Translations under genes and position numbers: made by a program
In this document: positions 15,521 through 19,332 of the stretch, piece by piece
Numbering within the stretch: position 1 is the stretch's first letter
Layout of the letters: each line of letters begins with the position of its first letter
Sequence record: SRR2962707_3356
DNA length: 32,328 nucleotides
Strand: one strand, 5' to 3'
The notes under the pieces: model-generated
Seen by the model: only the letters and a program-made list of their open reading frames with translations
Databases searched by the model: none
What the model was told of the DNA's origin: nothing

Positions 15521-16237
15521 ATGGAAATTCCCGAGCACGGCCACAGTCAGGACGAGATCGAGCACCGTATCGGCAAGCCTCCCGGACGAGGGTATCTGCG
15601 CGACATTGTTTATGGTGCCATTGACGGCTCTGTCACCACTTTCGCCATTGTGGCCGGCGTGGCAGGCGCCGGCTTGTCGCCGTTGATCATTGTGGCGCTT
15701 GGTATGGCCAATGTCCTTGCCGATGGGTTTTCGATGGCAGCGGGAAATTACTCTGGCACCAAGGCAGAACTGGATGACATCAAAAGACTGCGGCGTGTCG
15801 AAGAGCGCCATATTCAAACCCACCCCGAGGGCGAGCGTCGCGAATTGCGTCAAATCCTGCACCTGAAAGGGCTGTCGGGCACAGCCCTAGACGAAGCGGT
15901 TGATCAAATCTCAAGCGACAAAGATCTTTGGATACAGATGATGTTAGAAGGCGAATACGGCTTGGCCTCTGTTGATCCGCATCCGATGCGAGCGGCAACT
16001 GCGACGTTTCTGGCCTTTCTCGTGGCCGGCCTTATTCCATTGGTTCCGTTTATCCTGTCTATTCCGGACGCATTTTTTTGGTCCAGCTGTGCGACTGGAA
16101 TTACCTTTTTCCTGATTGGCACCTACAAAAGCGTCTGGTCCTTGTCACCCTGGTGGCGTTCCGGTCTCGAGACACTGGCAATTGGGGGCACCGCCGCCGC
16201 CATTGCTTATTTCGTCGGCACATTATTCAGCGGCTGA
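15521..16237 (+). CDS. VIT1/CCC1 family Fe/Mn transporter
   Basis: LRDIVYGAIDGSVTTFAIVAG, ANVLADGFSMAAGNY, acidic cytoplasmic segment, GLIPLVPF. Confidence 0.92.
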   Translation: MEIPEHGHSQDEIEHRIGKPPGRGYLRDIVYGAIDGSVTTFAIVAGVAGAGLSPLIIVALGMANVLADGFSMAAGNYSGTKAELDDIKRLRRVEERHIQTHPEGERRELRQILHLKGLSGTALDEAVDQISSDKDLWIQMMLEGEYGLASVDPHPMRAATATFLAFLVAGLIPLVPFILSIPDAFFWSSCATGITFFLIGTYKSVWSLSPWWRSGLETLAIGGTAAAIAYFVGTLFSG

Positions 16238-16254: not shown

Positions 16255-16283
16255 TTTACCCGCCATCGCGGCAGGCCTATAAG
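16255..16283 (+). promoter_or_regulatory. Putative sigma70 promoter for the ileS leader
   Basis: TTTACC (16255-16260), 17 nt, TATAAG (16278-16283), 6 nt, ATG 16290. Confidence 0.6.
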
Positions 16284-16289
16284 GCGCTC

Positions 16290-16340
16290 ATGATGTATGC
16301 CTTCGCCATTATCATGCGAATTACTGGCCCGGCGCTCTGA
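16290..16340 (+). CDS. Putative Ile-sensing leader peptide MMYAFAIIMRITGPAL of ileS
   Basis: 16-codon ORF with ATT ATC ATG CGA ATT core; starts at predicted +1; stop inside hairpin 16328-16356. Confidence 0.55.
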   Translation: MMYAFAIIMRITGPAL

Positions 16341-16425
16341 TATTTGAGCCGCCGGGACAAGGCGTTTGGACGACCGCGCCGACCCATCCCCCAATTGTCG
16401 AAATGATATACCGAGGACGCGCAAT

Positions 16426-19332
16426 ATGTGTTCTGACACGCCTGACTACAAAGCGACCCTGAACCTGCCGCAAACTGATTTCCCTATGCGGGCAGGACTG
16501 CCAAAACGTGAACCCCTGTGGCTTGAACGCTGGGCCGAGATTGGCATCTATGACCGCCTGCGCGAAAAAGCAGAAGGTCGCCCTCCCTTTACCTTGCATG
16601 ATGGACCGCCCTACGCGAACGGCCATTTGCACATCGGCCATGCTTTGAACAAAACCATCAAAGACATGATCGTGCGCAGCCACCAAATGATGGGGCATGA
16701 GGCCCGTTATGTGCCGGGCTGGGATTGTCACGGCCTTCCGATCGAATGGAAGATCGAAGAACAGTACCGCGCCAAAGGTAAGAACAAAGACGATGTCGAT
16801 ATCAACGACTTCCGCGCCGAATGCCGTAAGTTTGCCGCTGGTTGGGTCGATATCCAACGCAATGAGTTTAAGCGCCTCGGCATCTCGGGCAACTGGGACG
16901 ACCCCTATCTGACAATGAACTTTCACGCCGAGCGCGTGATCGCCGAAGAGTTCATGAAGTTCTTGATGAACGGTACGCTGTATCAGGGCTCAAAACCTGT
17001 GATGTGGTCGCCGGTCGAGAAAACCGCTTTGGCCGAAGCCGAGATCGAGTATCACGATCACAAGAGCCATACGATCTGGGTACCCTTTGTCGCGCAGAAT
17101 GGTTCAGGTGATCTTGAAGGCGCCAAAGTTGTTATCTGGACAACAACCCCTTGGACCATCCCGTCAAACAAAGCTGTCGCCTATAACCCGACCATCAGCT
17201 ACGGCCTGTACGAAGTTACAGCAACACCCGAAGAATGCTGGGCCAAGGTCGGTGACAAGTATCTGTTGGCTGACAATCTGGCTGCCGATGTCTTTTCCAA
17301 AGCGCGGCTCGCAGAGGACATGTTCAACCGTTTACGGGATGTAACTGCGGATGAATTGGGTGCGTTGACGCTTGCGCACCCGCTTCGTGGCGCCGATGGG
17401 GCTGAAGGGTTCTGGGACTATGATGTCCCCATGATCGATGGCGACCACGTGACGGACGATGCCGGTACGGGCTTTGTGCACACCGCGCCAAGCCACGGTG
17501 CCGATGACTACGAATGCTTTGTCAAACGCAACTGGTTGGACCGGATGACCCACAATGTGGGTGAAGAATCCGAATTCCTGCCGCATGTGCCTTTCTTTGC
17601 TGGCCTGCAAGTCTTTGACCGTAAGGGAAAAGAGGGCAAAGCCAACAATGCGGTCATTGCCAAATTGGTCGAAGTTGGCGGGCTGTTGGCCCGTGGCCGT
17701 GTCACGCATAGTTATCCGCACTCCTGGCGGTCCAAAGCGCCGATCATCTTCCGGAACACGCCACAATGGTTCGCTTCGGTCGACAAAGAAGTGGGCGATG
17801 GCCAAGACCAATACGGTAAGACCATCCGGGATCGGGCCCTGACCTCGATTGACCAACTTGTCAAATGGACTCCGCAAACGGGACGTAACCGTTTGTATTC
17901 CATGATCGAATCCCGGCCCGATTGGGTATTGTCCCGCCAACGCGCCTGGGGTGTGCCCCTGTCGTGTTTCACCAAGAAAGGCGCGCTGCCAACCGACGCA
18001 GATTTCTTGTTGCGCAACGCGACTGTGAACGCCCGTATCGCAGACGCCTTCGAAGTCGAAGGTGCAGATGCTTGGTATGCCGACGGGGCCAAGGAACGCT
18101 TCCTCGGCAGTGACGTAAACCCAGACGACTATGACCAAGTGTTTGATGTTCTGGATGTGTGGTTCGATTCTGGCTGTACCCATGCCTTTGTCCTACGCGA
18201 TCGCGAAGACGGCACCGAAGACGGTATTGCAGATGTCTATATGGAAGGCACCGACCAACACCGTGGTTGGTTCCATTCCTCGATGTTGCAAGCCTGTGGC
18301 ACCCTAGGTCGCGCGCCTTATCGCAATGTTGTGACTCACGGCTTTACGCTCGACGAGAAGGGCAACAAAATGTCCAAGTCCTTGGGCAACACCATTGTTC
18401 CCGAAAAGATCGTCCAGCAGTATGGCGCTGATATCTTGCGTTTGTGGGTCGCCCAGACCGACTATACCGCAGATCAGCGGATCGGCCCTGAAATCCTGAA
18501 AGGTGTCGCAGACAGCTATCGTCGTTTGCGCAACACCATGCGTTTCATGTTGGGCTCTTTGTCTGAGTTCAGTGAGGCTGATCGTGTTGACCCCGCCGAT
18601 ATGCCAGAATTAGAGCGCTGGGTGCTGCATCGTTTGGCAGAGTTGGATCATAAGGTTCAAACCGGGTATCGTGCGTTCCAATTCCAAGAAGTCTTCCAGG
18701 CGGTCTTTACTTTTGCCACTGTGGACCTGTCGGCCTTCTACTTTGATATCCGCAAAGACGCCTTGTATTGCGACGGGGACACCGAACGTCGCCGCGCGGC
18801 GCGCAGCGTTTTGGATATCGTCTTCCACCGATTGACCACCTGGTTGGCCCCGATTCTGGTGTTTACGATGGAAGAAGTCTGGCTGAAACGTTTCCCCGGA
18901 GACAAGAGCTCGATCCATCTGGAAGATATCCCCGCAACACCAAAAGACTGGCTGGACGAACCTTTGGCCGCCAAATGGGCCGACGTGCGTCGCGCTCGAC
19001 GTGTGGTTACCGCAGCGCTCGAGATTCAACGGACCGAGAAAGTGATCGGGGCGTCACTCGAAGCGGCACCGGTTGTGCATGTCGAAGATGCCGATGCTTT
19101 GTCCATTCTGAAATCCGTGGATTTTGATGACATCTGCATCACATCGGGTGTCGTATTGTCTGGCGATCCCTCCCCTGCCGAGGCGTTCCGCCTGCCGGAA
19201 ACCGACGGGATTGGGGTGGTTTTCGAAAAGGCTGAAGGCGAAAAATGTCAGCGGTGCTGGAAGATTTTGCCCGATGTCGGCACACATAGCCATGCGGGCA
19301 CCTGCGCCCGCTGTGACGACGCGCTAGGCTAA
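16426..19332 (+). CDS. ileS: Isoleucine--tRNA ligase (type 1)
   Basis: LHDGPPYANGHLHIGH, GWDCHGLPIE, WTTTPWT, GTGFVHTAP, KMSKS, C-terminal KCQRCW...CARC zinc finger; GAGG SD before ATG 16426. Confidence 0.98.
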   Translation: MCSDTPDYKATLNLPQTDFPMRAGLPKREPLWLERWAEIGIYDRLREKAEGRPPFTLHDGPPYANGHLHIGHALNKTIKDMIVRSHQMMGHEARYVPGWDCHGLPIEWKIEEQYRAKGKNKDDVDINDFRAECRKFAAGWVDIQRNEFKRLGISGNWDDPYLTMNFHAERVIAEEFMKFLMNGTLYQGSKPVMWSPVEKTALAEAEIEYHDHKSHTIWVPFVAQNGSGDLEGAKVVIWTTTPWTIPSNKAVAYNPTISYGLYEVTATPEECWAKVGDKYLLADNLAADVFSKARLAEDMFNRLRDVTADELGALTLAHPLRGADGAEGFWDYDVPMIDGDHVTDDAGTGFVHTAPSHGADDYECFVKRNWLDRMTHNVGEESEFLPHVPFFAGLQVFDRKGKEGKANNAVIAKLVEVGGLLARGRVTHSYPHSWRSKAPIIFRNTPQWFASVDKEVGDGQDQYGKTIRDRALTSIDQLVKWTPQTGRNRLYSMIESRPDWVLSRQRAWGVPLSCFTKKGALPTDADFLLRNATVNARIADAFEVEGADAWYADGAKERFLGSDVNPDDYDQVFDVLDVWFDSGCTHAFVLRDREDGTEDGIADVYMEGTDQHRGWFHSSMLQACGTLGRAPYRNVVTHGFTLDEKGNKMSKSLGNTIVPEKIVQQYGADILRLWVAQTDYTADQRIGPEILKGVADSYRRLRNTMRFMLGSLSEFSEADRVDPADMPELERWVLHRLAELDHKVQTGYRAFQFQEVFQAVFTFATVDLSAFYFDIRKDALYCDGDTERRRAARSVLDIVFHRLTTWLAPILVFTMEEVWLKRFPGDKSSIHLEDIPATPKDWLDEPLAAKWADVRRARRVVTAALEIQRTEKVIGASLEAAPVVHVEDADALSILKSVDFDDICITSGVVLSGDPSPAEAFRLPETDGIGVVFEKAEGEKCQRCWKILPDVGTHSHAGTCARCDDALG

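Follow-up and report, generated by a model that had tools for sequence, protein, structure and literature searches.

The classical leader-peptide attenuators are the pheST, ilvGMEDA, thr, his, and trp leaders of Escherichia coli, and Rho-dependent attenuators of the leader-peptide type are represented by E. coli tnaC, the Salmonella mgtA leader mgtL, and the corA leader. For Alphaproteobacteria, attenuators of ilvIH were reportedly predicted by Vitreschak et al. in 2004, and to our knowledge the regulation of aminoacyl-tRNA synthetases in this class is largely undescribed. Here, we analyze the 5' leader of ileS, the gene for isoleucyl-tRNA synthetase (IleRS), in a stretch of 32,328 nucleotides (nt) from sequence record SRR2962707_3356, to which we refer as the window. 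Ahead of ileS, the window carries promoter-like boxes, a short upstream open reading frame (uORF) with isoleucine codons, and two hairpins, P1 and P2. Judged by its conservation, this element is a real, strongly conserved, unannotated cis-regulatory leader, and we consider it probable (roughly 70%) that it serves as a ribosome-mediated isoleucine (Ile-tRNA-Ile) sensor.

A short coding sequence (CDS) at the corresponding place has been recorded in Caulobacter crescentus. There, ribosome profiling mapped an "ileS leader CDS," CCNA_03934 (796784-796828), an ATG open reading frame of 14 codons located 78 nt before ileS (CCNA_00737), which is found among the leaderless mRNAs whose 5' end carries a triphosphate (Schrader et al. 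2014, PMC4117421). In the data of that paper for two media, leader RNA stands at 829 and 1185 reads per kilobase per million (RPKM) and ileS RNA at 138 and 148 RPKM, which amounts to a 6- to 8-fold higher level of the leader, and ribosome density on the leader CDS is 1395 and 1585 RPKM. CCNA_03934 and the window uORF are both short ATG open reading frames ahead of ileS, at distances of 78 nt and 85 nt, respectively. From the class-wide distribution of the element described below, rather than from the sequence of CCNA_03934, we infer that this CDS probably belongs to the same family. In that paper, the CDS is only listed and, when overexpressed, provides the negative control for an assay of motility and division, with no motif, regulon, or regulation described (PMC4117421).

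Beyond this passing mention by Schrader et al. in 2014, the full-text literature (subscription journals not covered) yielded no description of an ileS attenuator in Alphaproteobacteria. An initial annotation of the window had pointed out the Ile-rich uORF as a candidate attenuator and knew of no described example in alphaproteobacterial ileS; the leader CDS itself, however, had been recorded in 2014, although it was never analyzed.

Architecture of the ileS leader

The features of the locus are given below in window coordinates. The −35-like box, the uORF, and the ileS start region were assigned by reading the sequence, P2 by covariation, the spacer by base composition, and the two protein-coding genes by Pfam.

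16255-16260, plus strand: −35-like box TTTACC
16278-16283, plus strand: −10-like box TATAAG, 17 nt 3' of TTTACC and 6 nt (GCGCTC) ahead of the uORF ATG
16290-16340, plus strand: uORF of 16 codons, MMYAFAIIMRITGPAL followed by TGA, predicted to be leaderless
16308-16313, plus strand: upstream Ile codons ATT ATC, followed in the window by a Met codon (ATG) in place of the third Ile of relatives
16317-16323, plus strand: invariant core CGA-ATT-A, consisting of a rare Arg codon, a wobble-read Ile codon, and an A
16328-16356, plus strand: hairpin P1, with the last uORF codons as its 5' arm and the stop codon opening its loop
16361-16380, plus strand: hairpin P2 (GGCGT ... GCGCC)
16381-16411, plus strand: C-rich, G-poor spacer, a candidate Rho loading site
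16413-16428, plus strand: ileS Shine-Dalgarno sequence GAGGA (16413-16417) and start codon ATG (16426)
16426-19332, plus strand: ileS, isoleucyl-tRNA synthetase, the putative regulated gene
15521-16237: VIT1-family gene, the upstream neighbor

The uORF reads ATG ATG TAT GCC TTC GCC ATT ATC ATG CGA ATT ACT GGC CCG GCG CTC TGA, with the downstream Ile codon, the ATT of the core, at 16320-16322. P1 is formed by CCCGGCGCTC (16328-16337), the loop TGATATTT (16338-16345), and GAGCCGCCGGG (16346-16356), with one bulged C; its 5' arm extends from the final C of GGC through CCG GCG CTC, and TGA makes up the first three bases of the loop. Folded alone, P1 of the window reaches −20.1 kcal/mol (z = −4.1), and none of 200 shuffles was equally stable. 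The identity of the gene 85 nt downstream of the uORF is well supported by Pfam, with tRNA-synt_1 at an expectation value (E) of 3.7e-127 in addition to Anticodon_1 and zf-FPG_IleRS.

Neither P1 nor P2 is followed by a U-tract in the window or in related leaders, and a terminator scan of the window found nothing at this site. A search of the window against Rfam 15 returned no T-box even at E values up to 10, its sole two matches being at chance level (E = 3.2 and 3.8), and no family, T-box included, exceeded its gathering score at 11 related loci.

In several respects, this arrangement resembles the classical attenuators: a short leader open reading frame contains cognate codons, hairpins that would read out the position of the ribosome overlap its end, rare codons are used as in E. 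coli leuL, whose CUA codons are the textbook case of rare regulatory codons, and the targets, as set out below, are a synthetase and biosynthetic genes of the same amino acid. Unlike in the classical cases, there is no intrinsic terminator or U-tract, the leader open reading frame is putatively leaderless and has no Shine-Dalgarno sequence, one fixed CGA-AUU pair at a fixed distance from the hairpin takes the place of a codon run, and no covarying antiterminator was found. With the tnaC, mgtL, and corA leaders, the locus shares a uORF ahead of C-rich, G-poor RNA, the lack of an intrinsic terminator, and the proposal that the position of the ribosome sets the access of Rho. It differs from them in its short spacer of about 31 nt and in the proposed sensor, a hungry Ile codon instead of free tryptophan or proline/Mg2+, and the role of Rho is here that of a candidate.

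Two further systems invite comparison. The mycobacterial polycysteine uORFs (bioRxiv 10.1101/834739) are likewise leaderless short first-cistron reading frames that carry codons of the amino acid of the downstream pathway and act as attenuators; they belong to another phylum and concern another amino acid, whereas the present element has a synthetase as its main target and combines an invariant codon pair with an abutting hairpin. The translational ileS T-box of Actinobacteria (Seliverstov et al. 2005, PMC1262725) concerns the same gene and also works without a terminator. However, T-box RNA reads uncharged tRNA directly, while the proposed reader in the window, where no T-box is present, would be a translated uORF.

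Conservation of the uORF and hairpins in Rhodobacteraceae

Using the first 300 residues of IleRS, we fetched 80 ileS loci of Rhodobacteraceae (72% to 84% identity), which together with the window form a sample of 81 that was chosen by IleRS similarity alone and is therefore unbiased as to the leader. The same leader anatomy was present in 80 of the 81, with promoter, uORF, P1, P2, and spacer common to all of these 80. The −10-like box is TATAAG in 51 and TATAAC in 20 of the 81 leaders, the −35-like equivalents in relatives are CTTTAC, CTGGAC, or CTTGT, 17 nt ahead of it, and the gap between the −10-like box and the uORF ATG is 6 or 7 nt in 70/81. The uORF has 16 codons in 56 leaders and 14 to 19 codons in 80, with the consensus MxxxxAIIIRI[IT]xPAL*, and its stop codon precedes ileS by 72 to 94 nt; at the ileS start, AAGGACGCC-N4-ATG is kept. 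A VIT1 gene lies upstream at just 12 of the 80 related loci, so the element belongs with ileS and not with the upstream gene. The lone exception, locus L074, has no −10 box and ATG at the usual place, and its frame extends upstream without a stop for 54 codons; another promoter or a rearrangement may account for this.

That the uORF is translated is indicated by its reading frame. In a frame-blind test, the first ATG found 3 to 12 nt past the −10 box was in frame with CGA in 80/80 leaders. The distance from ATG to CGA is 21 nt in 5, 24 nt in 13, 27 nt in 57, and 30 nt in 5 of these 80, and as all four lengths are in frame, changes in uORF length are changes by whole codons. The three codons preceding CGA encode Ile in 68, 69, and 70 of the 80, forming a cluster with the invariant AUU, and ATC, ATT, and ATA interchange at these positions. 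Synonymous change before CGA thus keeps the amino acid or the tRNA family, which indicates that Ile decoding is what is selected. Since the −10 box lies so near to the ATG, there is no room for a Shine-Dalgarno sequence ahead of the uORF. We infer for this organism that the 5' end of the transcript coincides with the uORF ATG or lies a few bases from it and that the uORF is translated as a leaderless mRNA.

Codon choice in the core is a second line of evidence. CGA is present in 78 of the 80 family uORFs, and ATT and the A that follows it in all 80; the codon after ATT is ATA 29 times. Over the first 300 ileS codons in these genomes, CGA accounts for 21 of 1407 Arg codons, and the 1182 Ile codons comprise 1041 ATC, 138 ATT, and 3 ATA. 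ATT and ATA therefore dominate the uORF although ATC prevails in ileS of the same genomes. A sensor of tRNA charging would be expected to rely on codons that are rare or wobble-read at its regulatory positions.

In most Rhodobacteraceae, ATT-CGA-ATT creates an 8-nt palindrome, ATTCGAAT; in the window (16313-16323), the preceding codon is ATG and the remaining sequence is TGCGAATT. We considered this palindrome and the T-loop-like UUCGAAU as a general feature and rejected it, as it is present only where the preceding codon ends in TT (Rhodobacteraceae) and is not class-wide.

The hairpins were analyzed in a family alignment of 80 sequences (A1). For P1, 98.1% of the alignment cells pair and both sides have changed at 5 of the 10 pairs. 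For P2, 94.7% of the cells pair, and a single pair of columns (86:104) holds C-G in 42, U-A in 30, and U-G in 3 of the 80 sequences. The observed covariation of P1 and P2 was reached in none of 500 shuffles, and all slid controls were far below it. The occurrence of G-U pairs places both structures on the sense strand. In a class-wide, model-fitted alignment of 50 sequences, P1 was retained, with 98.2% of the cells pairing and double changes at 7 of the 10 pairs, and P2 was mostly gapped, being specific to Rhodobacteraceae. RNAalifold also proposed a long-range pairing between the 5' arm of P2 and ileS codons 2 and 3 that is possible in 93.7% of the cells and shows no double changes. The first 11 bases of ileS (ATGTGCGCCGA, MCAD/E; window positions 16426-16436, A1 columns 165 to 175), which can take part in this pairing, have near-invariant nucleotides.

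The spacer between P2 and the ileS Shine-Dalgarno sequence is poorly conserved and has a mean length of 30.6 nt. Its base composition is biased: the pooled family spacers contain 38.5% C and 13.0% G, C exceeds G in 80/80, and C is at least twice as frequent as G in 72/80. The same bias (C > G) is seen in 17 of 19 ileS leaders of other Alphaproteobacteria. A C-rich, G-poor spacer fits an involvement of Rho, as a sequence property that is suggestive without proving it. At two further loci, L092 and L120, the region from P1 to ileS is filled with C-rich direct repeats (CCAATCGTTCGCC, three copies, in L092; CATCCGCCCCACA(G/C)G, four copies, in L120) that are reminiscent of Rho loading sites.

These comparisons bear out what the initial annotation had described at this site. 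The TTTACC-17-TATAAG-6-ATG geometry is present and its spacing is conserved in relatives, the 16-codon Ile-rich micro-ORF at 16290 has an equivalent in 80/81 leaders, the strong hairpin at 16328-16356 with the stop codon in its loop is confirmed by folding, the C-rich segment before the Shine-Dalgarno sequence recurs throughout the family, and the lack of a U-tract and of a T-box agrees with the terminator scan and the Rfam searches. The annotation had also suggested aligning ileS leaders; the alignment shows that the Ile codons are conserved and that P1 covaries, as does P2, which had gone unmentioned.

A shared core and its downstream genes in other Alphaproteobacteria

A covariance model of the leader, R1, finds a single copy within the window and one strong copy in each of five Rhodobacteraceae genomes, plus one copy of the AAA_33 type (see below) in genome G002. 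Over an even sample of 151 class genomes, whose tallies include genome G045 with an IleRS match and no motif match (no other result depends on this genome), R1 gave 15 matches at E <= 0.01, comprising 2 strong family members and 13 weak matches. Eight of these 13 lie directly upstream of ileS genes whose products are only 47% to 57% identical to that of the window. The shared core, which recurs in the sampled Alphaproteobacteria, consists of CGA-ATT-A, four bases, and a hairpin beginning with CCCG(G).

Searched as the pattern CGAATTA-N4-CCCG-N8..38-CGGG, this core was found in 49 of the 151 genomes (66 rows, 62 distinct sites), and the reversed control gave 8 matches. A stricter pattern matched 34 of 301 genomes of a phylum sample, with 1 match for the control. 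The exact pattern stands just upstream of ileS (23) or ribF-ileS (1) in at least 24 of the 132 genomes with an IleRS match, as judged by comparing coordinates by reading; this is a lower bound, since variants escape the pattern and many core-less loci have ribF directly upstream, where the region upstream of ribF fell outside the comparison. The core is present in 12 of the 30 best IleRS loci, two of which escape the closed pattern.

Three variants that lie outside the strict pattern were seen in leaders upstream of ileS. L165 reads CGA-ATC-ATC-GAC-CCG, with AUC for AUU; in L187, the stop codon follows immediately past R-I-T; and L186 encodes R-I-I-I-A-stop and has another hairpin start. The pattern site at L137 lies within a gene and was taken as a false positive.

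Outside the family, we examined 57 instances in 56 loci; since R1 or the pattern had served to pick these loci, it is circular that the core is invariant among them. An in-frame ATG is present within 75 nt in 56 of the 57 instances, and a promoter-like CTTGAC-N17-CTATAT stands about 9 to 10 nt before the ATGs (read by eye, uncounted). The minimum-energy fold pairs the first base of the stem in 53 cases, with a median of −18.9 kcal/mol, and 49 of these 53 hairpins have z < −2 when only the interior of the stem is shuffled between fixed ends. Frame 0 has its first stop codon inside the P1 span in 40/53 cases; the other two frames give 4/53 and 2/53.

The number of Ile codons up to the core is one in 10 and two in 29 of the 56 uORFs outside Rhodobacteraceae. 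The deeply conserved part of the putative sensor is a single CGA-AUU codon pair placed exactly 5 nt before a hairpin, and the Ile run is, by this comparison, an elaboration of Rhodobacteraceae. This modifies the initial annotation, which had taken the Ile run as the sensor: the run is indeed conserved within the family, but the deep sensor would be the codon pair.

Thirteen of the 57 uORFs (L098, L103, L107, L112, L113, L115, L116, L120, L122, and L127-L130) run through P1 without a stop codon, 10 of them before an ACT-like gene, 2 before ileS, and 1 before ribF. The five such reading frames that were worked out end 14 to 26 nt inside the next gene, in a different frame, and a conserved ..CATGTC.. 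holds the start codon of that gene. At L132 (G063:C11:64974-65208), two copies of core and hairpin occur 200 nt apart on the same strand.

The genes behind the core provide information on the probable signal. Outside the family, ileS itself accounts for at least 20 cases. The commonest other gene, with about 18 cases (L091, L098, L099, L101, L103, L107, L112, L113, L115-L117, L119, L122, L125, L127, L130, L131, and L135, all in other Alphaproteobacteria), encodes a small ACT-like protein of about 93 to 123 residues with the motif ..ADPG.MPRVLELFAKRGLVP... This protein stays below the Pfam threshold (ACT_AHAS_ss, E = 0.006), and the ESM Atlas groups it with ACT_12 clusters at a score of 0.95; it may act as a regulatory subunit that binds Ile. 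At L091 and L098, the ACT-like gene is followed by a gene for a DUF4743-NUDIX protein.

At L103, citramalate synthase (TIGR00977, 494.7 bits with a cut-off of 450) comes next after the ACT-like gene, and L105 carries a gene for a 321-residue threonine ammonia-lyase-like protein (best family at 340.5 bits, below its cut-off of 496). Isoleucine synthesis has two points of entry, citramalate synthase and threonine dehydratase, and finding such genes behind the same core therefore lends independent support to isoleucine as the signal. At L129, the downstream gene is ribF (352 bits with a cut-off of 295), and the contig also carries ileS, some 1.2 kb downstream of the motif.

A gene for an AAA_33 P-loop protein stands behind the core in at least 4 cases (loci L095, L109, L133, L136, and L146, as well as L192 at G002:C10:99853-99887). 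The protein has about 165 residues and a weak NCBIfam match to a non-canonical homoserine kinase (E = 0.0027), and the L192 copy belongs to a Rhodobacteraceae genome, the one that also contains L002. The downstream gene at L110 was assigned to none of these groups. Taken together, the downstream genes appear to constitute largely an isoleucine regulon.

Proposed mechanism and alternative explanations

The Ile-sensing role put forward in the initial annotation is supported by the conservation of uORF and hairpin, by a frame that is kept through 3-nt insertions and deletions, and by the Ile-related downstream genes. We propose that a ribosome translating the uORF would be slowed at the point where its P site holds the rare CGA and its A site the wobble-read AUU; further Ile codons, often the rare AUU or AUA, flank this codon pair on both sides in Rhodobacteraceae. 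The P1 base at about +11 from the first P-site base corresponds approximately to the mRNA entry site and helicase of the ribosome. P1 starts exactly 5 nt past AUU, so a ribosome awaiting Ile-tRNA would abut P1 in its folded state. Under a shortage of charged tRNA-Ile, the ribosome would wait at AUU and leave P1 folded; with an ample supply, ribosomes would melt P1 and terminate in its loop or, in the second architecture, translate on through P1 and across the start codon of the following gene. Downstream expression would then depend on whether P1 is folded and on where the ribosome stands, and would presumably be ON under isoleucine shortage: waiting should mean ON because the regulated genes make or use isoleucine.

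The output step is the least certain part of this scheme, there being no intrinsic terminator. Most likely, it would be Rho-dependent termination or polarity in the C-rich, G-poor spacer and, in the overlapping architecture, occlusion of the downstream start site by the flow of uORF ribosomes. Alternatively, a stalled ribosome may shield the AU-rich leader from cleavage by RNase E, or kinetic refolding may pair the 3' arm of P1 with the 5' arm of P2 and thereby free the C-rich 3' arm of P2. An output at the RNA level is plausible in view of the excess of C over G in the spacers (80/80 in the family and 17/19 outside it) and the ratio of leader to ileS RNA in Caulobacter.

A wider proposal would extend this scheme to a class-wide isoleucine regulon of Alphaproteobacteria, comprising ileS, ribF-ileS, citramalate synthase, and threonine-dehydratase-like, ACT_12, and AAA_33 kinase-like genes. 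These would be under an attenuator of an undescribed type, in which a leaderless uORF presents a single hungry AUU, slowed by CGA in the P site, to a ribosome that abuts a GC hairpin, and melting of the hairpin decides expression through Rho access or start occlusion. We advance this proposal tentatively, at somewhat short of even odds.

Several observations weigh against a ribosome-mediated isoleucine sensor. One or two Ile codons, as found in most uORFs outside the family, are few for a classical hungry-codon attenuator, and in the window uORF itself Met replaces the third Ile of its relatives. CGA and AUU are nearly invariant even at synonymous positions, which is more than the counting of Ile codons needs and leaves room for a role at the RNA level or in factor binding. 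The sigma-70 promoter scanner made no call at the site; it accepts only −10 hexamers that end in T, and for this reason the promoter was missed and its assignment rests on conservation, namely, on the −10-like box 6 to 7 nt before the ATG in 70/81 leaders. With respect to the switch, a pairing between the 3' arm of P1 and the 5' arm of P2 (2:3 pairing) could form in 82.2% of the cells and, for each of its four core pairs, in 72 to 80 of the 80 sequences, with little covariation, and a spacer of about 31 nt is short for a Rho loading site.

Folding lent no support to one form of output. We folded the 80 sequences at equilibrium either without a ribosome or with one placed on AUU, three codons upstream, or on the stop codon. 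The predicted accessibility of the ileS ribosome-binding site shifted by at most 0.02 and in no consistent direction, being positive in 41 to 50 of the 80 across the four comparisons. Simple thermodynamic masking of the ribosome-binding site is therefore unsupported. The initial annotation had the hairpin decide between Rho termination and ileS initiation; the first of these branches fits the spacer and stays a candidate step, but sequestration of the ribosome-binding site gained no support.

The alternative that survives best, although we regard it as unlikely, is that CGAAUUA together with P1 forms the recognition site of a trans-acting factor, such as IleRS itself in an autoregulatory loop, another RNA-binding protein, a small RNA, or RNase E, and that the uORF protects or exposes this site. 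E. coli ThrRS is a precedent for autoregulation, and GA|AUU resembles the cleavage consensus of RNase E. Such a site would account for seven invariant bases, synonymous positions included, at a fixed distance of 4 nt from a hairpin with the conserved basal CCCGG/CCGGG, and a stable processed fragment would also give the excess of leader over ileS RNA in Caulobacter. A pure binding site, however, has no need for a motif that always lies in one frame of a uORF starting at the 5' end of the RNA, nor for flanking Ile codons that change synonymously yet stay Ile. No candidate factor was identified, and the P1 loops, which begin with UGAU, UGAG, UGAC, or UAAG, hold no conserved anticodon-like GAU. 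Mimicry of a tRNA anticodon in the P1 loop was rejected on the related ground that the base after UGA varies.

Nearly on a par with it, and likewise unlikely in our assessment, is an arrest peptide, in which the nascent ...R-I-[ITS]-x-P-x-x-stop would stall the ribosome near the stop codon on a small molecule, e.g., free isoleucine, and hold P1 open in the manner of TnaC, where nascent-peptide stalling responds to tryptophan. The fixed positions of R, I, and P, the stop codon located 2 to 5 codons past Pro within P1 in 40/53 cases, the nearly constant RI[IT]xPAL* of Rhodobacteraceae, and the scarcity of Ile codons in most non-family members (just one or two) are all in keeping with it. Yet the conserved residues coincide with nucleotides that are fixed otherwise, CCG, GCG, and CTC being the stem of P1, and CGA and ATT are fixed at synonymous positions too, where a constraint on the peptide would permit synonymous change. 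Moreover, the position that separates I from P is free to vary (G, C, S, N, F, Y, or T), 13 of the 57 uORFs have no stop codon in P1, and the sign would have to be inverted relative to TnaC.

We consider it very improbable that the 16-residue hydrophobic micropeptide is itself a functional product, coexpressed with ileS, and that the hairpins are incidental. The uORF is conserved and probably well translated, as the ribosome density on the Caulobacter leader CDS would suggest, but the N-terminal third of the peptide is unconserved in sequence and variable in length, only R-I-x-x-P is common outside the family, and overexpression of the Caulobacter peptide served as a negative control in the motility and division assay; a functional micropeptide would also leave the covariation of P1 and the Ile-related regulon unexplained. 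Finally, the idea that P1, a strong GC hairpin 91 nt past the VIT1 stop codon, is a terminator or insulator of VIT1 and the micro-ORF a chance frame is effectively refuted by the conservation of the element in 80/81 leaders with VIT1 upstream at 12/80 loci only, by the conserved frame (80/80) and the bias in Ile and CGA codons, by the lack of a U-tract, and by the conserved promoter that sits between VIT1 and P1.

If the proposed sensor of Ile-tRNA-Ile is correct, it would constitute a control mechanism for the essential IleRS, the target of mupirocin, and tie this enzyme to isoleucine biosynthesis genes in one regulon, with a range that covers marine roseobacters and other sampled Alphaproteobacteria. 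The gene content of the putative regulon points to roles in isoleucine metabolism for ACT_12 and for a group of AAA_33 proteins, both of which are uncharacterized. The leader would furthermore offer a compact, terminator-free, leaderless attenuator for studying how the position of a ribosome becomes gene control, a clear case of codon-pair choice (CGA-AUU) under strong selection, and a well-defined candidate for a new RNA family model.

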